A stretch of 32,000 nucleotides of DNA from Thermaceae bacterium (GTDB lineage: Bacteria; Deinococcota; Deinococci; Deinococcales; Marinithermaceae): contig JALSRQ010000146.1 in assembly GCA_026984675.1 (NCBI GenBank), positions 1 through 32,000 of the forward strand, in the 5' to 3' direction. Positions within the stretch are counted from its first letter, which is position 1; each line of letters begins with the position of its first letter. The notes beneath the pieces were generated by a model. It saw nothing but the letters and a program-made list of their open reading frames with translations. It was not told where the DNA came from and made no database searches. Below, in pieces: positions 988 through 17,940 of this stretch. Made by a program: the position numbers and the translations under genes.

Positions 988-2321
<1,334 letters not shown>

Positions 2322-2330
2322 ATACCCCAC
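2322..2330. repeat. Left copy of the 9-bp direct repeat ATACCCCAC, immediately after the accC stop codon
   Basis: Exact 9-mer repeated at 3316-3324. The two copies bracket the recombinase gene. Confidence 0.7.
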
Positions 2331-2336
2331 TTAACC

Positions 2337-2364
2337 TTGTCAAGCGCCACCGGACACCTAAGGT
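2337..2364 (+). promoter_or_regulatory. Putative promoter for a leaderless recombinase mRNA
   Basis: TTGTCA (2337-2342), 16-nt spacer, TAAGGT (2359-2364), 6 nt, then ATG at 2371. The same -10/N6-7/start geometry recurs at several host genes in this window. Confidence 0.35.
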
Positions 2365-2370
2365 GTAGGC

Positions 2371-3285
2371 ATGCCTACTTTTGCCGGTGTAGACGTATCA
2401 AAGAGCTTCCTCGACGTTTTTGACAGCACGGAGATCAAACGCTACACGAACGACCCAGAGGGATGGGCCGGCATTGCCGAGGAGACACGGGGGCCTTACG
2501 CGATCGAGGCTACCGGGATCTACCACATTCCCGTGGCGCGGTATTTGTGGCGAGAGGGCCGGACCGTCTACGTGGTCTCGCCCCTGCAGGTGAGGCGGTA
2601 TGCCCAGGCGCTCATGGCCCGCAACAAGACCGACAATCTGGACGCGCGGGTCATCGCGGCGTACGCGGAAGCAGCAGGAGACCGGCTCCGACCGTGGACA
2701 CCCTTAGACGCAGACCTGAGCGCGATTCGGGTGCTGGTGGGGTATGCGAGGGGAATCAGCCAGCAAAGCGCAGCCAACCGCAACCGGCTTCACACCGTTC
2801 GGTTCGCCTACCCCGAGCACGCTGGAAACATCGTGGAGACGGTGGCGGAGCTTAAGAAAACGGCGAGGCGGTTTTATCGAGAGGCGTTGAAGGTGGCGCA
2901 TGAAAACCCCACCATCGCCCACTGGATTGATCAGATGACCGAGGTGTCGGGGGTGGGGGAACGGGTAGCGCTCACGGTCATGGCGTACGGCGGCAACCTT
3001 GAGCGGTTCGACAATGCTCGGGCCTTCGCCGCCTACACCGGCCTGACGCCGATGCGAAAGCAGTCGGGGGAAAAGGAGGGAAAAGCGAGGATCTCGCGGA
3101 TGGGGCCGGGGGCGTTGAGGCAAGCGTTCTATATTGCCGCCAGGGTGGCAGTGATGAAGGATGAGCGCTATCGGGCGTACTACGAGCGAAAGCGAGCAGA
3201 AGGGAAGGCGCATCTGCTGGTGATGACCGCGATAGCCCGGAAGCTCGCGGTGGTGACATGGAAAAAGGCCGTGGGCCGGCCCTAG
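2371..3285 (+). CDS. IS110-family DEDD (RuvC-like) transposase/recombinase, 304 aa
   Basis: N-terminal DEDD signature (GVDVSK, AIEATG, KTDNLDA). C-terminal Tnp domain (GVGERVALTV..., YTGLTPMRKQSGEKEGKARISRMGPGALRQAFY). Lower GC than the host genes. Confidence 0.9.
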   Translation: MPTFAGVDVSKSFLDVFDSTEIKRYTNDPEGWAGIAEETRGPYAIEATGIYHIPVARYLWREGRTVYVVSPLQVRRYAQALMARNKTDNLDARVIAAYAEAAGDRLRPWTPLDADLSAIRVLVGYARGISQQSAANRNRLHTVRFAYPEHAGNIVETVAELKKTARRFYREALKVAHENPTIAHWIDQMTEVSGVGERVALTVMAYGGNLERFDNARAFAAYTGLTPMRKQSGEKEGKARISRMGPGALRQAFYIAARVAVMKDERYRAYYERKRAEGKAHLLVMTAIARKLAVVTWKKAVGRP

Positions 3286-3409
3286 CCACGCTTACCCACG
3301 GGCTCAGGGGCCCATATACCCCACCGGCAGGACCTGCGGCGCCAATCTAACCGACGAGCTCAAAGGCTCAGTATGGAGGACGGCGTCCTAGCCCACGGCC
3401 AAGAACAGG
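3286..3409. other. 124-nt non-coding spacer between the convergent recombinase and phage genes. Candidate att-like sequence or guide (bridge/seek) RNA locus.
   Basis: No credible ORF. Contains ATACCCCAC-CG-GCAGG (3316-3331), the palindrome GCAGGACCTGC (3327-3337) and the hairpin AGGAC-GGC-GTCCT (3377-3389). Confidence 0.3.
3316..3324. repeat. Right copy of the 9-bp direct repeat ATACCCCAC
   Basis: Exact match to 2322-2330. Confidence 0.7.
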
Positions 3410-3652
3410 CTACCACCGAGGGCGCTGGTAGGGACATCCAGCTTTTTCGCACCGCCTGCGTCCCTCGCGTAAAGCGGCAATCTCAAGGCCGGACAGCAAT
3501 TCGCCGCAAACAGGGCATCGGGTCCGGGTGTACGTAAAGCTCTTTCTCGAAATGTGTTTGGGATCCGTGCCGGTTAGGAAAGCCGTTCCCAACTTCCACA
3601 ACCACCAGAGCAAAGCGACCACCACCAGGACGGCCAAGAGATCGCCGATCAT
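3410..3652 (-). CDS. Small prophage membrane protein with a C-terminal Cys4 (zinc-ribbon-like) motif, 80 aa
   Basis: N-terminal TM helix (LLAVLVVVALLWWLW), then CPVCG...C-x5-GC. ATG lies 4 nt after the Zot stop. No clear SD. Confidence 0.5.
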   Translation of the reverse strand: MIGDLLAVLVVVALLWWLWKLGTAFLTGTDPKHISRKSFTYTRTRCPVCGELLSGLEIAALREGRRRCEKAGCPYQRPRW

Positions 3653-3656
3653 GCGA

Positions 3657-4529
3657 TTAGGCTATCGCAGGCTCGAGACGGGGGAGAGTCTCGGCGAACT
3701 TTCGACGCAGCAGCTCATGGGGAGGAACGCCTAGACGATATGCGTGGGCGAGCTCGGCTAGGGTGAGGGCAGGAAGGCCGTCGGCGGGGCCCGGGCCAGA
3801 CTTGCGCTGGGCAAGCTTTGACTCATCCCAGGTGAGCCCCAGCGCCTCAACCGCTGCCCGGCGCTTGGGATCGAGCTCCTTTTGCAGCTCGATGATCGGA
3901 GGCGGGAAGATCGCCCGGGTGTCGTAGCAGGAAGCCGCTAGGGGGTCGAGGACCACCACGTCGTTCCGGACGATGCCCTCGAAGATCGTGCTAGATCGCT
4001 TGTTCATCATGCCAAGCGAGTCGTCCATGATGTGGGTGTAGCGGATCACTGGGCGGCGCCAGCGGTGCTTGGGCCACAGAAGGAGCTTTAGCCAGATGGG
4101 CGCGGGCCGGGCCCACCAGACATGAGCCACCAGGTCGCGGATCATGGTGTCCACCGAGGCATACCGCTGGGTCGCGAGGAGTACATCCACCCCCACCTTG
4201 CGGTGCTGGGACCAGAAGCCCAGGACCTCGGTGGGAAAGAGGCGGTACTCCCGGGCGTTGAACCACATGTGGGCTTCGTCGAAAAGCAAAAGGCCTTCAT
4301 AAACACTCAGCAGACCTTTGTAGTCGCGGATCTCTTCGATGCTATCGGCACGGAGAACGGCCTCGCGATGGGGCATGCGATGACGACGGCGCAGGTAGTG
4401 GTAAACGTTTTCGCGAATAAAGCCGAAGTTGGCGTAAACCCGCTTACCCCTCGCGAGGGCTTGAAGCCCTCGATGAACGAGCATGTAGCTCTTACCCGAG
4501 CCCGGAACGCCCACGTAGGCTTCAATCAT
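3657..4529 (-). CDS. Zot/pI-like inovirus assembly P-loop ATPase, 290 aa
   Basis: Starts MIEAYVGVPGSGKSYMLV (Walker A) and has LLLFDEAHMWF (Walker B). ATG at 4529 lies 2 nt after the upstream gene's stop. The 151-aa upstream extension in the ORF track is rejected. Confidence 0.85.
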   Translation of the reverse strand: MIEAYVGVPGSGKSYMLVHRGLQALARGKRVYANFGFIRENVYHYLRRRHRMPHREAVLRADSIEEIRDYKGLLSVYEGLLLFDEAHMWFNAREYRLFPTEVLGFWSQHRKVGVDVLLATQRYASVDTMIRDLVAHVWWARPAPIWLKLLLWPKHRWRRPVIRYTHIMDDSLGMMNKRSSTIFEGIVRNDVVVLDPLAASCYDTRAIFPPPIIELQKELDPKRRAAVEALGLTWDESKLAQRKSGPGPADGLPALTLAELAHAYRLGVPPHELLRRKFAETLPRLEPAIA

Positions 4530-4531
4530 GG

Positions 4532-4936
4532 CTACCCACCGCCCCTCAGGAACTTGACGCCCTTGTAGAGGAAGATCGCGCCATAGACCGCCGCCCAGAC
4601 CGAAGCGGCGGTCAAAACCTCGGAGACCGGAAAGAAGACGTTCAACAGGCCCAGGTAGGTGCCGAGCGAATCGGTATACCACTGGGGCGGCTGGGGGACC
4701 TGGGGCAGCAGGTGGGCCAGGGTGGTGAGCAGGATGAAGAAAAGGTCCACGAGCAGGTTCAGGACCGCAACCAGGAGATCCAGGAACCAGCCCAGCACCG
4801 CCCCCACCAGGGAGCCCAGCGCTTGCCAGAGTGCACCGAAGAGACTCGCAAACCAGCCCAGGACATGCCCGGCGGCCTGGGCAATCAGGTCGGCGATCAT
4901 CTGCAAGAACGACGCGAGGGCACTCACCGGAACCAC
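4532..4936 (-). CDS. Polytopic hydrophobic prophage protein in the gVI position (minor coat/assembly)
   Basis: 134 aa, strongly hydrophobic, immediately upstream of and coupled to the Zot gene. GTG start at 4936 is uncertain (poor SD spacing; alternative ATG at 4900). Confidence 0.6.
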   Translation of the reverse strand: MVPVSALASFLQMIADLIAQAAGHVLGWFASLFGALWQALGSLVGAVLGWFLDLLVAVLNLLVDLFFILLTTLAHLLPQVPQPPQWYTDSLGTYLGLLNVFFPVSEVLTAASVWAAVYGAIFLYKGVKFLRGGG

Positions 4937-4980
4937 CTCCAGGCGGAGAAGGGGATGCTCCTTTCAAAGCCGCCGGGCGC

Positions 4981-5100
4981 AAGGGTGAACCCCTTCGGGA
5001 ACCATCCCCTTCGCGCGGCGCGGTACCGAAAAGCGGGAGTCCTCACCGAGTCCGGCCGTCCGACTCCAGACCTGCGCCGCGCTCCGGGGACGCTTCGCGC
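4981..5100. repeat. Repeat-rich phage intergenic region with nested inverted and short direct repeats
   Basis: Inverted repeat GCGCGGCGC (5013-5021) / GCGCCGCGC (5074-5082) encloses GGAGTC (5036-5041) / GACTCC (5062-5067). Direct repeats are CCCCTTCG (4990-4997, 5006-5013) and CTTCGCGC (5009-5016, 5093-5100). Confidence 0.6.
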
Positions 5101-5120
5101 CCTTGCGCCCGTCGGCCCAA

Positions 5121-5161
5121 GAGCAAGCAAGAGAATCGAGGGCTTTCCAGGGGAAAGCCCT
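5121..5161 (-). terminator. Intrinsic terminator after the pIII-like gene
   Basis: Perfect 10-bp stem AGGGCTTTCC/GGAAAGCCCT with a 3-nt loop (5139-5161). On the - strand it is followed by the U-rich CGAUUCUCUUGCUUGCUCUU. Confidence 0.65.
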
Positions 5162-5179
5162 TGTTCCAAGTTTCTCAAG

Positions 5180-6643
5180 CTAGGCATGGCTTGCCCTCCG
5201 GGCGACAGCGAAGAGGAAGCCAACCATGAGGGACGCCAGAACAATGCGGCGACCGGTCGACGCAGCCCACTGCATCACAGGGTTGTTACAAATGTCCACG
5301 TCGGCGGGGGGGAGGTCGGGGATTTGAAGCTGAACGTGCATGTCGCAGGCTCCGCCGCCGACCGAGGGCGGGGTAGGGATCCACCGGGCCATGCCGACCG
5401 GGAAGCGGTCTTGCAAAAGTTGCCAGAGATCGCTAAGGCGCTGTTGAAAGTTCTGGCGCAAAGGGTCAAAGCGCCCGGCCAGGTCGGGAAGGGTGGGGGC
5501 GTCGAAGGTCGGCAGATCGACCGGAGTCAGGGAGGGCATGCTGGGATCAGGTACCTGGTCAGGTTGCTGATCAGGCTGGCACTGGTTATTAGGGTCGTCC
5601 GGGCAAGGGTCCGCCGAGTCCTTGAGGCCGTCGCCGTCGGTGTCAGCGTCCTGGCTTACGTCCGGGCGGCTGCTGGGATCGGTGGGATCGGTCCCGGCGT
5701 CGCGTTCCGTACCGTTATCGTAGCCATCCCCATCGGGGTCGGCGGTCGGCAAGGGCTGGGACCCTGCGTTCGAGGGGTCCGAGCCGGTATCCCACTCGAA
5801 CCAGTCGGGCCAACCGTCCCCGTCGGAGTCCTCGGCAGGGTTAAAGAAGGGGTTGTCCCACCATTGGTTGCCGGTTGGGGGAGGATCAAGGGAAAGACCA
5901 GGAATAGGCACGCTGAAGGACTGGGGGATATTGCCCTTAGCGTCCTGATCGTTAAGGTAGTCGGTGACAGCCTGCTTAACCCCATCGGCAGCGTCGGGGT
6001 GAGACTGAATCCAGTCGGGGAGAGGAGGGCGGTTAACGCGGACATAGGCCGCGTCTACAGTCCAGGGGGTACCGCCTCCGGGGGGTATCACCTGGACAGG
6101 GCCGCCGAGCTGATCGCGGTCCACCCACTGGTAGTCGGTTAGCGTGCCTTCGCGGTTGAGAATCGCCTGCTCACCGACGGAGAGGGCAGGAGTAGGTGGG
6201 CAAGAGCCACCGCCTACTTCGCGAGGCTGGCAGTTAGGGCAGGTGTATCGCCAGTTGTATGCATGGAAATAGCTATCGCAGTACCCGCCGGTAATAACCC
6301 AAGCCCAATCGGAATAGGGACCACCGGCAAGGTTCCACCAGGTATCTAAGGACGTGCCGGTAGACTTCTTGGCTTGGTCGTAGAACCACTCTAGGCCGGT
6401 GTAGATCAGGGAGGCGGCGAACACGGCGACGCCGGCATAACGGACTACAGAGCCCCAAACCAGGCGCTTTTGGAACTGAGCGTCGGACCAAGCGATAACC
6501 TCGTCCAAAGTAAAGCCTTGGATAGCGGACTCGGCAGCGTTAAGGAAGCCAGGAGAAGAGGCAGGAACAGGGCGGTGAGCGTAGGTCGGGGAGAGCAAGG
6601 CCCCGGCCACCGCCAGGGCAACCAGCAGCCGGGGCACTCGCAT
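5180..6643 (-). CDS. pIII-like secreted, C-terminally anchored adsorption/minor coat protein with thrombospondin-type-3-like Asp-rich repeats
   Basis: Signal peptide MRVPRLLVALAVAGALLSPTYA and C-terminal TM anchor (IVLASLMVGFLFAVARRASHA). DxDGDG motifs (DSDGDGWPD, DPDGDGYDNG, DTDGDGLKD). Lies directly after the coat gene. Confidence 0.7.
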   Translation of the reverse strand: MRVPRLLVALAVAGALLSPTYAHRPVPASSPGFLNAAESAIQGFTLDEVIAWSDAQFQKRLVWGSVVRYAGVAVFAASLIYTGLEWFYDQAKKSTGTSLDTWWNLAGGPYSDWAWVITGGYCDSYFHAYNWRYTCPNCQPREVGGGSCPPTPALSVGEQAILNREGTLTDYQWVDRDQLGGPVQVIPPGGGTPWTVDAAYVRVNRPPLPDWIQSHPDAADGVKQAVTDYLNDQDAKGNIPQSFSVPIPGLSLDPPPTGNQWWDNPFFNPAEDSDGDGWPDWFEWDTGSDPSNAGSQPLPTADPDGDGYDNGTERDAGTDPTDPSSRPDVSQDADTDGDGLKDSADPCPDDPNNQCQPDQQPDQVPDPSMPSLTPVDLPTFDAPTLPDLAGRFDPLRQNFQQRLSDLWQLLQDRFPVGMARWIPTPPSVGGGACDMHVQLQIPDLPPADVDICNNPVMQWAASTGRRIVLASLMVGFLFAVARRASHA

Positions 6644-6647
6644 GGCC

Positions 6648-6872
6648 TTACCCCTTGAGGAAGCGCCGGGCGAACTTGAAAGCGGTCATGAGCCCGATGG
6701 AAAGGGCGAGGACGCCGACGCCGGCGGCGGCGATTGCGCTCAGGTTGGCGGTCACCTTCTGGGCGATGGGGGTGGGGTCGATGTCCGCCGAGGGAGCGGT
6801 TTGGGCGAACGAGAGCGCCCCCAGGAAAAGCGAGGTGCCAAGGACCGAGAGCTTCTTGAGAAACTTCTTCAT
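6648..6872 (-). CDS. Inovirus major coat protein precursor (pVIII-like), 74 aa
   Basis: AAGGAGG lies 8 nt upstream of the ATG at 6872. Signal peptide MKKFLKKLSVLGTSLFLGALSFA, then a 51-aa mature part: acidic N-terminus, AIAAAGVGVLALSIGL core, basic C-terminus KFARRFLKG. Closely resembles the PH75 coat protein as I recall it. Confidence 0.88.
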   Translation of the reverse strand: MKKFLKKLSVLGTSLFLGALSFAQTAPSADIDPTPIAQKVTANLSAIAAAGVGVLALSIGLMTAFKFARRFLKG

Positions 6873-6922
6873 GAGAATCAGCCTCCTTTCGTAGTTGCTC
6901 AACGCACGGCCCTGGACGCGCG

Positions 6923-7015
6923 TTAGAGCCGACGCAGAACGGCCCGGAGAGCACCGAGGATGACGCCCCCCGCAAGGCCCCAAAGGTAGGCTCCCCAAAT
7001 GGGTTGCCAGTCCAT
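6923..7015 (-). CDS. 30-aa hydrophobic micro-protein (gVII/gIX-like position)
   Basis: MDWQPIWGAYLWGLAGGVILGALRAVLRRL. AGGAG lies upstream. ATG overlaps the upstream stop (TGATG). Confidence 0.5.
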   Translation of the reverse strand: MDWQPIWGAYLWGLAGGVILGALRAVLRRL

Positions 7016-7122
7016 CACAGGCTCCTGAAGAGCACCCAGGCATAGCGGTAGGCGGCGAGGAACGCGTAGGGAACGCTGGCGATGGTGACCACCGAGAGCC
7101 AAGCGGTGCTGGGATCGAACAT
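7015..7122 (-). CDS. 35-aa hydrophobic micro-protein (gVII/gIX-like position), absent from the ORF track
   Basis: Hand translation gives MFDPSTAWLSVVTIASVPYAFLAAYRYAWVLFRSL. TGATG overlaps occur at both ends. Confidence 0.45.
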   Translation of the reverse strand: MFDPSTAWLSVVTIASVPYAFLAAYRYAWVLFRSL

Positions 7123-7226
7123 CACCAGTCCCCCACGGCCAGCACGCCGGTAAGCACGCCAAGGGCGAAGGCGAAGACCTTCAGGACCTCGACGACCTGA
7201 CCGACAGGAACCTGAGCCAGGCTCAC
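7122..7226 (-). CDS. 34-aa hydrophobic micro-protein, absent from the ORF track
   Basis: GTG start overlaps the stop of the upstream gene (GTGA). Translation is (M)SLAQVPVGQVVEVLKVFAFALGVLTGVLAVGDW. Confidence 0.35.
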   Translation of the reverse strand: MSLAQVPVGQVVEVLKVFAFALGVLTGVLAVGDW

Positions 7227-7492
7227 TTGGCCTTCACCTCCGCACGTTCGCGAACGTAGTGAACGGTACCGAGACGGGGGGTGTTCTCTCTGAGGTAGAC
7301 GCGGGCCCGGAAGGTGACGGGATCCATCGGCTTTAGCGCCATCACGTCAGGGACGCTCTCGGGGTCCAGGTTCAGGCGCAGGATGGGGCTTTCGTCGTCG
7401 ATGATCAGTTCAACGGTGTGGTAGACCTTGCCGTTATCGGCGGTGCGGGAGGTGTACCGTACAAAGTTCCCTTTTACGTAGACTCCGTTCAT
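7223..7492 (-). CDS. 89-aa protein in the gV position, putative ssDNA-binding protein
   Basis: GGAGG lies 9 nt upstream of the ATG at 7492. Size and position match inovirus gV. The beta-rich sequence (MNGVYVKGNFVRYTS...) is compatible with an OB fold. Function is assigned from synteny only. Confidence 0.5.
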   Translation of the reverse strand: MNGVYVKGNFVRYTSRTADNGKVYHTVELIIDDESPILRLNLDPESVPDVMALKPMDPVTFRARVYLRENTPRLGTVHYVRERAEVKAK

Positions 7493-7620
7493 TTTCCTAA
7501 CCTCCGTCCATAGTGCGGATCGCCTGTCAGCGCGGTGCCGATCACCACGCGCAAGGCCCAAAGAAAAGCGGTGCCGTTATCACAGAGGAGGCGCCAATAG
7601 CGGAGAAACCGCAGCATCAT
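7489..7620 (-). CDS. 43-aa ORF between the rep and gV-like genes
   Basis: ATG overlaps the rep stop and its TGA overlaps the next ATG (ATGA), which fits a translational-coupling chain. No recognisable motif. Confidence 0.3.
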   Translation of the reverse strand: MMLRFLRYWRLLCDNGTAFLWALRVVIGTALTGDPHYGRRLGK

Positions 7621-8993
7621 GCAGCCACCCCTTGGTAAAGCGCAAGGCGTTCCAGGTAGCGGTGCTCGAAGACGCCGCCGGCCAGGGCCTCGGGAAGTGC
7701 CCGGGGTGAGGTGCGGAATAGGCGGGCGAGAGTGCGCTCGAGGTACTTGCGGGCGTAGGCGACGCGTTCGAGCGCCACACCCTGCATTGCGGCAGCGGAG
7801 AGGATCACGCCCACGGCCTGAGCCAGGAGGCCCTCGGTAGCAGCGCGGAGGGGCCGACGGGCACGCTTGAGGGGAACCCGGACCTGGGCCCAGGCCAGAA
7901 TGACCTCCGTCCAAAGCGGATCTTCCGGCCAGCGGGTCTTCTGCTGGTTCGCGCTCGGAACCCGCAGGCTGAGCCAGTGCGTGGTCAGGTAGTACCAGAG
8001 GGCGCCAAGGTTCTCGACCAAGGTGGGCCACTCATGGAAGTCGAGAAGGCCCTTCTCGGGGTGCAAGAAGGCAGTGAGCACGTCCTTGCGAAGCTGGAAC
8101 TCGACGCGCCAGACCACCGTGTTCTCAAGGTCGAGGCCGAAGCTCGCCGCGTAGTCGCGGAGAAGCTCCTTCGCCTCGGGCTTCTTACGGGCCTCGGCGG
8201 TCTTGCTGTAGATCCGGGCCAGGAGCTTCTTGCTCCCGAACCGGAACGAGGTCCAGCGCGGGCCGCTAAGGTGCACCTGGGCCTCGGCGAGGGCAGAGGG
8301 CGCGGCAAGAAGCGCCAGGCCCTCACCCGTGCACTTAGCGGCCCCCGTGCTACTCATGGGGGGGCCGCCCGCGCCCGGGGCGGCGCTCCCGCGCTCGCCG
8401 CCGGGCGCTTCGGCGGCATCCTCCAAGTAGGCTTGGCGATCGCGGGCACGGGAAACGAAGCGGTAAAGGTCCGGGAGCTCGAAGGGGTGATCCGGTGAGG
8501 CGAAGTCGGCGTAAAGATCCACACGTGAAACGCCGATACGTACAGGGTCGGGATCTTGCAGCCCAGCCCGTGCCATAAGCGCAATCAGCCGGGCAGTGAT
8601 CGCATCGACGATCTCGCGGATATTCCCGCCAAGAGCGCGGATGTAGCGCCCGTGGAGCTCGACACGGACCTGGGCATAGTCGTCCCGCTTTACGGCTGGC
8701 TTCTCTGGGTCTGAGATGCCCAGGAAAAGGGCCTCGTCCCCGAAGACGAGGCCGTAACGGTAATGCCGGACGCGGCGAATCTGGGCCCGCTCAAAGTCGC
8801 GGGGCTCAAGGGTGGCCGGAATGCCAAGGTCAGAGACGTCCACAAAGACCGGGCGGTCGAGATCGGTCTCGTTGCGTTTGACAAGCCCGGCTTCCAGGCG
8901 CTGGTGAAGGTCAGAAGGGAGACTGTAGCGCGGACCCCAGGAGTACCAGAGGACCAACGTGTCCACGCCGTGGGCAAGCGGGGTTGCATTCAT
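7617..8993 (-). CDS. Rolling-circle replication initiator, Rep_trans (RstA/pT181 RepC-like) family, 458 aa
   Basis: The LLARIYSKTAEARKK segment resembles the conserved RxYDK catalytic-Tyr motif of Rep_trans proteins. N-terminal GVDTLVLWYSW resembles the family's DWL motif. First gene of the phage block. No SD, and only about 9 nt from the island edge. Confidence 0.7.
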   Translation of the reverse strand: MNATPLAHGVDTLVLWYSWGPRYSLPSDLHQRLEAGLVKRNETDLDRPVFVDVSDLGIPATLEPRDFERAQIRRVRHYRYGLVFGDEALFLGISDPEKPAVKRDDYAQVRVELHGRYIRALGGNIREIVDAITARLIALMARAGLQDPDPVRIGVSRVDLYADFASPDHPFELPDLYRFVSRARDRQAYLEDAAEAPGGERGSAAPGAGGPPMSSTGAAKCTGEGLALLAAPSALAEAQVHLSGPRWTSFRFGSKKLLARIYSKTAEARKKPEAKELLRDYAASFGLDLENTVVWRVEFQLRKDVLTAFLHPEKGLLDFHEWPTLVENLGALWYYLTTHWLSLRVPSANQQKTRWPEDPLWTEVILAWAQVRVPLKRARRPLRAATEGLLAQAVGVILSAAAMQGVALERVAYARKYLERTLARLFRTSPRALPEALAGGVFEHRYLERLALYQGVAA

Positions 8994-9012
8994 TTGGGTG
9001 CAGGGTAAGGAT
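8984..9012 (+). promoter_or_regulatory. Possible junction-spanning promoter for leaderless asp23-nusB-folD
   Basis: TTGCAT (8984-8989, inside phage DNA over rep codons 2-3), 17 nt, AAGGAT (9007-9012, host side), 7 nt, then ATG at 9020. Confidence 0.25.
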
Positions 9013-9019
9013 GGGGGCG

Positions 9020-9328
9020 ATGGCCGACTACGAGCTTTCCGAGGCCGCCCTGGCGCAGCTGGTGGGGTTTGCCCTGGACGCGGTGGACGGCGTCCGGTTG
9101 GCCTCCGGCAAGGGGCTCGGCGGGCGCCGCCGCCCGGTCCGGCTGGGGCGGGAGGAGGGCGGCATCACCGTCGAGCTGGGGCTGGTCGCCGCCTACGGCC
9201 GGTCTCTCCCCGAGCTCGGCCGCGAGGTCCAGCGGGCGGTGGCCGAGGGCCTCAAGGCCACCGCCGGGGTGAGCGTCCGTCGGGTCGACGTGGTGTTCCT
9301 CGAGGTGGAGCCCGATGAAACGGCGTAG
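9020..9328 (+). CDS. Asp23/Gls24-family (alkaline shock) protein
   Basis: MADYELSEAALAQLVGFALDAVDGV... is a typical Asp23 N-terminus. The ORF-track start at 8984 would overlap the rep start and island edge and is rejected. Overlaps nusB by 14 nt. Confidence 0.8.
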   Translation: MADYELSEAALAQLVGFALDAVDGVRLASGKGLGGRRRPVRLGREEGGITVELGLVAAYGRSLPELGREVQRAVAEGLKATAGVSVRRVDVVFLEVEPDETA

Positions 9329-9749
9329 GGCCCGCGAGCTCGCCTTCAAGGTCCTCTTCGAGCACCTGGTGGGCGGGGTCCCCCTGGAGGAGGCCTGGCG
9401 GCACGCGCTGGAGCTGGAGGAGCCGTCCCCCGACCCCGCCACCCGGGCCTTCGCCGAGCGGTTGGTCGAGGGCTTCCTCCGCCACCGGGAGACGGTCGAC
9501 CGGGTGCTGGCCGAGACCATCGAGGGCTGGAGCTTCTCCCAGATGAACCAGACCGACCTGGTCCTCCTGCGCCTGGCCACCTTCGAGGCCCTCTTCGAGG
9601 ACACCCCCTTCCCGCCGCTGATCGAGGTGGCGGTGAGGATCGCCAAGCGCTACGGCGGCGAGGACTCCGGGCGGTTCGTCAACGGGGTGCTGGCCCGGCT
9701 GATCCAGCGGGTCGAGGCCGGGGAGCTCAAGGCCGTCCCCAAGAGCTAG
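9315..9749 (+). CDS. nusB: Transcription antitermination factor NusB
   Basis: RRARELAFKVLFE N-terminus and KRYGGEDSGRFVNGVLARL C-terminal motif. Conserved asp23-nusB-folD context. Confidence 0.9.
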   Translation: MKRRRARELAFKVLFEHLVGGVPLEEAWRHALELEEPSPDPATRAFAERLVEGFLRHRETVDRVLAETIEGWSFSQMNQTDLVLLRLATFEALFEDTPFPPLIEVAVRIAKRYGGEDSGRFVNGVLARLIQRVEAGELKAVPKS

Positions 9750-17852: not shown

Positions 17853-17940
17853 GCCGGGATGGCGGAATCGGTAGACGCGGCAGACTCAAAATCTGCTGGG
17901 CGGATAGCCCGTGCGGGTTCGAGTCCCGCTCCCGGCACCA
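17853..17940 (+). tRNA. tRNA-Leu (anticodon CAA), type II with long variable arm, CCA encoded
   Basis: Acceptor GCCGGGA/TCCCGGC. Anticodon stem GCAGA/TCTGC with loop CTCAAAA. T arm GCGGG-TTCGAGT-CCCGC. 3' ACCA. Confidence 0.92.

Follow-up and report, generated by a model that had tools for sequence, protein, structure and literature searches.

The filamentous phages closest to the element studied here are the Thomixvirus phages phiOH3 (OH3), phiOH16, Zuza8 and Zuza27 of Thermus thermophilus (Paulinoviridae). It is already established that Thermus inoviruses carry an IS110-family enzyme and occur as proviruses. In Thermus genomes the proviruses have an endonuclease gene at one end and a transposase gene at the other, and integration by the transposase was proposed by analogy with the Neisseria Nf phages, with no mention of a guide RNA (Kolesnik et al. 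2024, PMC11437467). The same work views OH3 as a derivative of a phiOH16-like phage that arose by deletion (PMC11437467). IS110-family enzymes in turn are known to be RNA-guided, and the bridge recombination of IS621 shows the mechanism that appears to be mirrored here (Durrant et al. 2024, PMC11208160). We analyzed a stretch of 32,000 nucleotides from a Thermaceae bacterium (positions 1 to 32,000 of contig JALSRQ010000146.1, assembly GCA_026984675.1; here referred to as the window), in which a filamentous prophage lies between the host genes accC and asp23. Taken together, the evidence makes it highly probable that this is an intact, recently mobile prophage which was integrated by its own RNA-guided recombinase of the IS110 type.

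Like the Thomixvirus phages, the prophage shows the gene order gII-gV-VII-IX-VIII-III-VI-Zot and encodes homologous Zot, pIII, pVI, pVIII and Rep proteins as well as a homologous IS110-family transposase. Furthermore, phiOH16, Zuza8 and Zuza27 carry a homologous RNA module between Zot and the transposase gene, as the window does. In contrast, the transposase gene of Thomixvirus is co-directional with the phage genes, whereas that of the window is inverted and convergent; the window lineage also has an extra open reading frame (ORF) of 80 aa, and the host of the window is an uncultured member of the Thermaceae rather than Thermus. A filamentous prophage with an IS110-family (Piv-like) transposase at one end, which was proposed as the integrase, is described for Neisseria Nf/MDA as well (Kawai et al. 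2005, as cited in PMC11437467). Host and phage lineage are unrelated to those of the window.

To delimit the element we used empty sites. Ten public contigs encode the exact NusB protein of the window; in four of them (L005, L006, L007 and L009) the gap between accC and asp23 measures 10 nt and contains no block, and in a fifth (L008) the Rep end of the element stands upstream of asp23. Because the junctions could be aligned to the four empty sites, the limits are exact at 2322-9009. An earlier note, made from the letters of this DNA, had set them at 2316-9007 and had suggested searching the accC-asp23 junction of related strains for empty sites; its limits had to be shifted, while its view of an intact integrated copy in a defined site was borne out. 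The insertion point lies after the accC stop and before the asp23 start, between two tightly coupled host genes.

At the left junction the empty sequence GAGCGGGTAG|GATGGGGGCG of L005 is replaced in the window by GAGCGGGTAG|ATACCCC, and at the right junction the window reads GCAGGGTAAG|GATGGGGG. The empty attachment site (attB) is GAGCGGGT-AG-GATGGGGGCG, the left junction (attL) GAGCGGGT-AG-ATACCCCACTT and the right junction (attR) GTGCAGGGTA-AG-GATGGGGGCG. All that the three have in common at the crossover is the dinucleotide AG, which forms a core of 2 bp at both ends of the element. A generic search for direct and inverted repeats revealed no att sites, no dif-like site and no second set of repeats; the att sites were missed because the core is only 2 bp long. 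The left end ATACCCCAC was identical in 12 of the 13 elements of the window lineage, the exception being L027 with ACATACCAT, and GGGTAAG was kept at the Rep-side junction of L015, L016, L018, L022, L036, L042, L044 and L047.

The GC content of the element is 0.634 compared to 0.701 in the rest of the window, and it falls from ~0.70-0.77 outside to 0.58-0.66 inside. The two lines sampled in the earlier note (35/60 inside, 41/60 outside) are exact, and a block present in all relatives with a host-like composition, which it had named as the case that would speak against mobility, is not what was found: the block is variably present. Since it is present in and absent from genomes that are otherwise identical at the locus, the element must have moved recently, and by this comparison it is a recently mobile prophage.

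The earlier note had regarded the interval as a complete prophage. Its phage genes stand, but a recombinase gene on the + strand at the left end and the RNA module that follows it had not been listed. The recombinase scored 188 bits (cutoff 140) with NCBIfam NF033542 'IS110 family RNA-guided transposase', contains the domains PF01548 (DEDD_Tnp_IS110, E 4e-20) and PF02371 (Transposase_20, E 9e-23) and shows 38-40% identity with the phiOH16, Zuza8 and Zuza27 transposases. A search with it yielded seven clusters of 55-90% identity. Every homologue in this range whose contig reaches past the module shows the same layout and adjoins Zot, with recombinase gene and module facing orf80 and Zot (recombinase -> module, <- orf80 <- Zot); stand-alone copies were not found among these close homologues. 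A scan of viral contigs with the recombinase protein returned nothing, and one with the Rep alignment a single distant partial match of 40% (L041).

Because IS110-family enzymes are guided by an RNA from next to their gene (PMC11208160, PMC11187229), we inspected the 124 nt after the recombinase stop. The module found here is best read as a bridge-RNA-like guide, which is predicted to be transcribed, to be bound by the recombinase and to be needed for recombination. RNAalifold on nine relatives gave 31 pairs, nine of them with compensatory changes, and two arms each consisting of an internal loop of 12+12 nt with a capping hairpin. The covariance model R1 detected one copy in the window (E 3e-45) with nothing else significant there, and one copy per element in all relatives. 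Rfam contained no family for the module: searching 1800-9600 by E-value and the entire window by gathering score returned only chance matches and one tRNA.

The guides of the donor loop correspond to the two ends of the element. The 5' guide CTTACCC corresponds, as its reverse complement, to GGGTAAG at the right end (9003-9009), and the 3' guide ATACCCCAC is identical to the left end (2322-2330). In L027, with its deviating left end, the donor guide is ACAUACCAC and matches that end. The donor guides of phiOH16, Zuza27 and Zuza8 match the composite site between the transposase gene (tnp) and gII, the 5' guide at 7/7 positions in each and the 3' guide at 9/10, 9/10 and 10/10 positions, respectively.

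It could be argued that recombinase and non-coding RNA (ncRNA) form a separate insertion sequence (IS) of the IS110/IS1111 kind beside a prophage which integrated otherwise, by the host XerCD or a lost integrase. The segment 2322-3409 is 1.09 kb long, about the size of an IS110-family IS, and OH3 is viable without a transposase. However, the sequences to which the donor guides correspond are the left end and the distant right end, and nothing near 3409, the empty sites lack the entire 6,688 bp and show a single 2-bp core, the close recombinase homologues that reach past the module are all linked to Zot with no stand-alone copies, and neither a dif-like site nor a second set of repeats came to light. 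A separate IS is therefore barely plausible.

The guides of the target loop were compared with the insertion sites of 13 elements, namely the window and 12 elements at other chromosomal sites, which came from the recombinase clusters, further cluster members and metagenome relatives of Rep (Table 1). The left comparison comprised 7 nt including the core, with 4 variable positions, in all 13 elements; the right one comprised 8 nt in seven elements. The left guide matched at 45 of the 52 variable positions. Permuting guides and sites gave a mean of 18.0, and none of 200,000 permutations reached 45. For the right guide 44 of 56 positions matched, a value attained by 88 of 200,000 permutations, and the match was perfect (8/8) in L018, L022 and L044.

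Table 1. Flanks of 13 elements and the flanks implied by their target guides
Element	Left flank	Left, implied by guide	Right flank	Right guide
Window	CGGGTAG	CGGTTAG	GATGGGGG	UAUGGAGG
L014	GGGGTAG	same
L016	GCGGTAG	same	GATAGGTC	GAUGGGAA
L018	CCAGTAG	CCGGTAG	ACTGAGCG	same
L021	CCGTTAG	TCGTTAG
L022	TGGCTAG	TGACTAG (G.U)	AATGCGCC	same
L024	CCTATAG	same
L026	TTGCTAG	same
L027	AGTCTAG	same
L036	AGAGTAG	same	AATCGGGG	AAUCGAGG
L037	TGAATAG	TTGCTAG (misfit)
L042	CGACCAG	CGACTAG	GACTGGGA	ACUGGGAU (fits with 1-nt shift)
L044	ACGTTAG	same	ACTGAGGG	same

The window and L014 are 95% identical over the region of the tnp 3' end, the module and orf80; the positions at which they differ are concentrated in the two target guides. 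Elements of 85-95% identity occupy at least 10 different loci. This pattern of guides and flanks is what RNA-guided recognition of target and donor would predict, and we found no other explanation for it.

One could suppose instead that the protein itself reads the target DNA and that the matches within 3291-3379 are repeats at the DNA level, either recombinase sites or footprints of past recombination. The RNA is itself a prediction, and a protein might bind the short inverted repeats GGGTA/TACCC at the ends. But the matches fall in the single-stranded sides of two internal loops whose structure is kept by compensatory changes, they vary in step with the flanks among elements whose recombinases are still more than 85% identical, and the family is RNA-guided by experiment (PMC11208160, PMC11187229). 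We consider target choice by the protein in this way very improbable.

Several points weigh against integration by an RNA-guided recombinase. The guides of the window are imperfect for their own site: CTAACCG is complementary to CGGTTAG while the true left flank is CGGGTAG (6/7), and TATGGAGG agrees with the right flank GATGGGGG at 6/8 positions, which makes three mismatches. In L037 (8590-8710) the left flank matches the guide at only one of four variable positions, and in L042 the right guide fits only with an offset of 1 nt and a C stands for T beside the core; both misfits may stem from off-target insertion or from mutation at a later time. As the elements compared are close relatives, the covariation counts exceed the number of events that were truly independent. 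The existence, ends and strand of the RNA are predicted from the sequence only, and since the recombinase gene is inverted relative to the module in comparison with Thomixvirus and a stand-alone Thermus IS110, one lineage breaks the usual co-directionality of RNA and recombinase on either strand. Additionally, a strict scan for the sigma-70 consensus called neither of the two candidate promoters described below, and scans of viral and metagenome contigs recovered no circular replicative form with a phage attachment site (attP) junction. One contig of 6,694 nt (L045) is cut inside tnp and Rep.

In part these points would also suit a block that is a fixed, defective remnant unable to excise or to make virions: no circular form was recovered, the three guide mismatches at the window site might reflect decay, and the contigs that bear the prophage are all metagenomic. 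On the other hand, all 12 ORFs of the element are full length compared with relatives, the block is present and absent among contigs of the same sampling series with 100% identical NusB, and elements of 85-95% identity are found at no fewer than 10 loci. We therefore regard a remnant as unlikely and retain the reading as a prophage integrated by its own recombinase.

For this integration we propose the following course. The whole double-stranded replicative form would serve as the donor circle, and the 304-aa DEDD recombinase would bind an RNA of ~135 nt from the module 3267-3400; that this RNA is made, and from which strand, we infer. The attP site (...GGGTA-AG-ATACCCCAC...) would lie between gII and the recombinase gene and would be confined to the circle, where the junction is expected to read GGGTAAGATACCCCAC. 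One loop of the RNA would pair with both halves of attP and the other with both halves of the chromosomal target (...CGGGT-AG-GATGGGGG...), for which NNNNT-AG-NNNNNNNN would be the general form. The strands would be exchanged at the common dinucleotide AG (CT in the complement), leaving AG at both junctions, and for excision the reaction would run backwards from attL and attR (cf. PMC13626964). A rule by which every insertion follows an in-frame TAG stop codon was rejected: it is true at accC and fails in L036, where the neighbouring gene lies on the opposite strand. A tRNA site is not used by the insertion.

The recombinase would have a leaderless promoter of its own. By eye, TTGTCA (TAGTCA in L037), a spacer of 16-17 nt and TAnnnT are kept in nearly all relatives read; no clear TAnnnT hexamer was seen in L024 and L044. 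TTGTCA is the + strand reading of the quasi-palindrome CTTGTCAAG in the 49-nt left end, whose - strand reading TTGACA is a candidate -35 element of gII in the circle. TACCCT (9007-9002, - strand), located 8 nt upstream of the gII ATG, is the candidate -10 element and would stand 17-18 nt from TTGACA in the circle. Such a junction promoter for gII would be split by integration, and replication would be silenced in the lysogen.

To assign the strand of the RNA, the relatives with the other gene orientation are informative. In phiOH16, Zuza27, Zuza8 and further Thomixvirus-type contigs the module matched by R1 is always upstream of the transposase gene, on the opposite strand. The orientation of the module is fixed relative to the phage genes; it is the recombinase gene that is inverted between the lineages. 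Both hairpins of the Thomixvirus type read GGCC...GGUC on the tnp-sense strand and GACC...GGCC, with an A.C mismatch, on the other, and the consensus structure is ~10 kcal/mol better on the tnp-sense strand. The Thomixvirus-type RNA is almost certainly a canonical upstream RNA of the IS110 type. In the window lineage the same tests gave 17 versus 17 for the counts of G.U and A.C and a consensus-structure energy slightly in favour of the tnp-sense strand, and a comparison of minimum free energies of both strands is biased by the G content.

The IS110-group layout, with an ncRNA upstream of and co-directional with the recombinase gene, is found in phiOH16, Zuza8, Zuza27 and L028-L033 and weakly in L039, and is not found in the window. 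L039 is a stand-alone IS110-family element of the Thermus parvatiensis plasmid pTP143 (52133-54417) which lies inside a copy of ISTth4 (IS256-like). Its recombinase is 33% identical, and the ~290 nt of non-coding sequence upstream of the gene give a weak R1 match (E 0.006).

With IS621 of the IS110 group (PMC11208160, PMC13626964) the window shares a DEDD recombinase of ~300 aa, an ncRNA whose two simple internal loops both carry one guide for the left and one for the right side, with the 2-nt core included in the guides, a circular donor, the core CT (on the - strand of the window) and, as a prediction for the window, a promoter assembled across the circle junction. A - strand RNA of the window would equal that of IS621 in having the target loop first, in guides of 10 + 7 nt and in strand pairing: the 5' guide of ~10 nt would read like the top strand left of the core, the 3' guide of 7 nt would be complementary to the top strand right of the core, and the core would be CT. 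Unlike IS621, which carries just the recombinase gene, the window element has a whole virus genome of 5.6 kb as cargo. Also, its module lies downstream of the recombinase gene and would be convergent in the IS621 geometry, whereas the IS621 RNA is upstream and co-directional.

The IS1111 group (ISEc11, ISPa11, ISKpn4; Siddiquee et al. 2024, PMC11187229) resembles the window in a short left end, which measures 49 nt in the window, and in a non-coding module immediately 3' of the recombinase gene (3' seekRNA). If the + strand of the window were used, the RNA would follow the IS1111 layout, 3' of the gene and with the complement of the top strand first (PMC11187229). In contrast to IS1111, the subterminal inverted repeats comprise ~5 bp (GGGTA/TACCC) rather than 7-17 bp, the donor guides lie in a simple internal loop and not in a multiloop, and relatives with an upstream non-coding region of the IS110 type have a homologous module, which is inverted by comparison. 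An attempt to read the IS1111 loop order from the Klebsiella plasmid elements L038 and L040 was abandoned, as these could not be recognised as copies of IS5075/IS4321.

On balance we lean slightly towards an RNA from the - strand (3400->3267, after orf80 and convergent with the recombinase gene) with the geometry of IS621. An RNA from the + strand, as the 3' untranslated region of the recombinase mRNA in an IS1111-like layout, has a little under an even chance. The two sister lineages have the same strand-symmetric module at the same place. A further idea, which we put forward as rather doubtful, is that in each of them the transcribed strand is the one that runs in the direction of its recombinase gene, so that Thomixvirus would follow the IS110 rules with an upstream RNA and the window lineage the IS1111 rules with a downstream RNA. 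This would suggest that the split between IS110 and IS1111 arose by inversion of the recombinase gene over a module with both strands usable as guides and not by relocation of the RNA.

According to its gene content, the region 2322-9009 is an intact integrated filamentous phage with single-stranded DNA (ssDNA) of the order Tubulavirales, Paulinoviridae-like, and predicted to be able to make virions. All features are collected in Table 2. The - strand ORFs from 3410 to 8993 given in the earlier note were all recovered in the ORF list, with micro-ORFs of 34, 36 and 30 aa, as was its hairpin terminator after the pIII-like gene (5161-5139), and the Ff order gII-gV-gVII-gIX-gVIII-gIII-gVI-gI which it recognized is the order seen in OH3, phiOH16 and Zuza. 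Likewise, the product searches it had called for revealed similarity of coat, Zot and Rep to inovirus families, and the kinship it suggested holds for PH75 by the coat and for phiOH3 (indeed 5,688 nt) by Zot, pIII and Rep.

Table 2. Features of the prophage and its insertion site in the window
Feature	Position	Strand	Remarks
accC stop codon TAG	2319-2321	+	AG at 2320-2321 is the copy of the 2-bp crossover core that the host contributes to attL
Inserted element, inovirus genome and recombinase module	2322-9009		6,688 bp; absent from L005/L006/L007/L009, present in the window and L008
Left end ATACCCCAC	2322-2330	+	Putative right-donor half-site of attP
Promoter-like element for the recombinase	2337-2364	+	TTGTCA 2337-2342, 16-nt spacer, TAAGGT 2359-2364, ATG 6 nt downstream (leaderless-type)
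IS110-family DEDD recombinase, 304 aa	2371-3285	+	NF033542, Pfam DEDD_Tnp_IS110 and Transposase_20
Bridge-RNA-like module, ~135 nt	3267-3400	- or +	Starts inside the last codons of the recombinase; RNAalifold and covariance
Outer stem P1, 10 bp	3267-3276 with 3391-3400		GGCCGTGGGC pairs with GCCCACGGCC; encloses donor and target arms
Donor loop	3291-3324	+	5' guide CTTACCC 3291-3297, hairpin 3300-3313, 3' guide ATACCCCAC 3316-3324
Target loop	3338-3388	+	Closing stem GGCGCC 3338-3343 with GGCGTCC 3382-3388
Target-loop guides	3347-3379	+	5' CTAACCG 3347-3353, hairpin 3356-3369, 3' AG+TATGGAGG 3370-3379
orf80, 80 aa	3410-3652	-	N-terminal transmembrane helix and C-terminal CxxC...C...C motif
Zot/pI-type assembly ATPase, 287 aa	3657-4520	-	GVPGSGKS and LLFDEAH; PF05707 E 1e-16; phrog_20922 E 7e-103
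pVI-position polytopic membrane protein, 134 aa	4532-4936	-	phrog_37052 E 1.5e-6
Terminator-like hairpin	5139-5161	-	10-bp stem, then T-rich tail; 19 nt after pIII, within the 243 nt that separate pIII and pVI
pIII-like adsorption protein, 487 aa	5180-6643	-	Signal peptide, TSP3 repeats, C-terminal anchor; phrog_36046 E 2e-64
Major coat precursor, 74 aa	6648-6872	-	PH75 coat PDB 1HGV; Pfam Phage_Coat_B
Micro-ORF, 30 aa, MDWQPIWGAYLWGLAGGVILGALRAVLRRL	6923-7015	-	Hydrophobic; frame shows only inside a longer mechanical ORF
Micro-ORF, 36 aa	7015-7125	-	Hydrophobic, gVII/gIX position
Micro-ORF, 34 aa	7122-7226	-	Hydrophobic, gVII/gIX position
Protein at gV (ssDNA-binding) position, 89 aa	7223-7492	-	Assigned by position only
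ORF between Rep and gV, 43 aa	7489-7620	-	37-40-aa gene calls at the equivalent place in L018 and L022; no family match
Rep, gII equivalent, 458 aa	7617-8993	-	Contains LLARIYSK; phrog_33635 'endonuclease' E 4e-44; 32-35% to OH3/Zuza gII
Right end AGGGTA+AG	9002-9009	+	GGGTAAG 9003-9009 is the putative left-donor half-site; AG 9008-9009 is the element copy of the core

Residues 30-74 of the coat precursor align with the PH75 major coat protein (E 3e-12), the mature part end to end, and thus the mature coat is clearly homologous to that of this Thermus inovirus, of which the coat sequence alone was compared. The precursor conforms to the small alpha-helical type of major coat with a signal peptide. 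Its match to Phage_Coat_B (E 3e-6) lies with 27.7 bits above the gathering score of 23.5, and the match of Zot to PF05707 also lies above the cutoff. The overlapping micro-ORFs have a counterpart in three gene calls at the same place in L022, and the 36-aa and 34-aa products match the IX and VII regions of OH3/Zuza8 by tblastn. For the 89-aa protein no match was obtained in Pfam, PHROG or NCBIfam nor by tblastn to gV of OH3; an ORF of 89-90 aa is kept at this position in L016, L018 and L022. The 43-aa, 80-aa and 89-aa products had no detectable match in OH3, phiOH16 and Zuza.

The product of orf80 had no family match in Pfam and PHROG and none by tblastn in these phages; in relatives of the window lineage its position after Zot and its size (82-95 aa) are kept. 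Behind its transmembrane helix it contains a zinc-ribbon-like motif (CPVCG...C..AGC). The pIII-like protein has TSP3_bac repeats, which are calcium-binding and of the DxDxDG type, at residues ~290-360 (Pfam E 5e-8), where Ff g3p has glycine-rich linkers; relatives gave faint TSP3_bac matches. OH3 also has an intergenic gap at the pIII-pVI place (4027-4277).

By its homology to phrog_33635 and to gII of OH3/Zuza, Rep is predicted to be the rolling-circle initiator at the head of the operon. Of the 'Rep_trans-type initiator' in the earlier note, the initiator with its RIYSK motif can be kept, and the label Rep_trans is weakly supported: the Pfam matches stayed below the gathering score for Rep of the window (E 0.043) and for six of 10 homologues (best E 0.0076). 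Sequence and profile searches of Rep against the PDB gave chance matches only, and the AlphaFold2 model built on 10 sequences had a mean pLDDT of 48, too low for further use. More than 70 metagenome contigs from soil, freshwater and sediment (L050-L121) encode proteins with 23-46% identity to the centre of Rep (residues ~240-410); therefore the initiator family reaches well beyond the Thermaceae of hot springs. A Rep homologue of 72% identity (P0159) is encoded on a contig of 6,798 nt from a metagenome-assembled genome (MAG) labelled 'Candidatus Diapherotrites archaeon' at NCBI. The archaeal bin is probably a binning artefact, and the contig could be a complete circular genome.

Comparison by blastn with 50,697 phage records gave matches only to the Thermus phages OH3, phiOH16, Zuza27 and Zuza8, with 67-69% identity over 9-14% of the query. 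The whole-genome alignment to phiOH3 proposed in the earlier note thus led to related phages alone but covered just a small part of the element, and the genome-wide nucleotide similarity does not place it in Thomixvirus. At the protein level (tblastn against OH3, phiOH16 and Zuza) the identity was 64% for Zot (to the 'IV' protein of OH3), 39-53% for the coat, 31-38% for pIII, 32-35% for Rep and 27-30% for pVI. Since the gene order is shared while the protein identities are low, the prophage, whose size falls within 5-10 kb, is of the Paulinoviridae kind but no Thomixvirus in the narrow sense, and its lineage looks like a sister to Thomixvirus rather than a member.

Remains of the module were seen in two other genomes. 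OH3 (L001), which is a viable phage without the transposase gene, retains at 44-90 on the - strand a remnant of the half with the target loop (E 0.019, model positions 82-129), which fits its published origin by deletion from a phiOH16-like phage (PMC11437467). In a related prophage of a Thermaceae MAG (L015:9250-9434; Zot 88%) only the last ~23 nt of the module (CCTAGCCCACGGCC...) follow orf83, and then unrelated sequence. L015 may be a derivative that has lost the recombinase and most of the module; its contig ends 169 nt further.

The host is an uncultured Thermaceae bacterium from a hot spring; its FolD is 87-90% identical to proteins from MAGs and only 65-68% to those of named Thermus. 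Two of the related prophages were found in MAGs labelled Thermaceae and others in Oceanithermus. At the insertion site the right end GGGTAAG resembles the displaced left flank GGGTAG of the host (window 9003-9020, L005 9686-9705), and the sequence just 5' of the asp23 start is almost restored after insertion (GGGTAAGGATGGGGGCGATG versus GGGTAGGATGGGGGCGATG). Transcription of accBC must nonetheless traverse 6.7 kb of prophage. The window has a single tRNA gene, an ordinary tRNA-Leu(CAA) at 17853-17940 (+), which is unrelated to the prophage.

Because a literature search returned nothing that links bridge RNA or seekRNA with inoviruses or phage lysogeny, the RNA module, its match to attP and attB, its natural re-targeting and the inverted recombinase gene are undescribed as far as known. 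We know of no guide RNA for the Neisseria Nf/MDA phages. A specialist would half expect an RNA beside such an enzyme; the virus-sized natural cargo, the thermophilic triplets of recombinase, RNA and site and the puzzle of orientation would still be of value.

If our reading is true, a bridge-RNA recombinase moves an entire virus genome as a cargo of 5.6 kb and serves an ssDNA phage as its lysogeny integrase, with the specificity for the attachment site held in ~15 nt of RNA. Among the relatives this specificity is seen rewritten in nature for at least a dozen chromosomal sites. A simple lysogeny switch is suggested as well, in which integration would split the gII promoter. The pairs of thermophile recombinase and RNA with their natural donors and targets would be candidates for thermostable programmable recombinases, and the inverted recombinase gene would offer a tractable pair of systems for relating the layouts of IS110 and IS1111. 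Finally, it would account in concrete terms for the choice of sites by inoviruses with IS110-type 'transposases', among them possibly Neisseria Nf/MDA.

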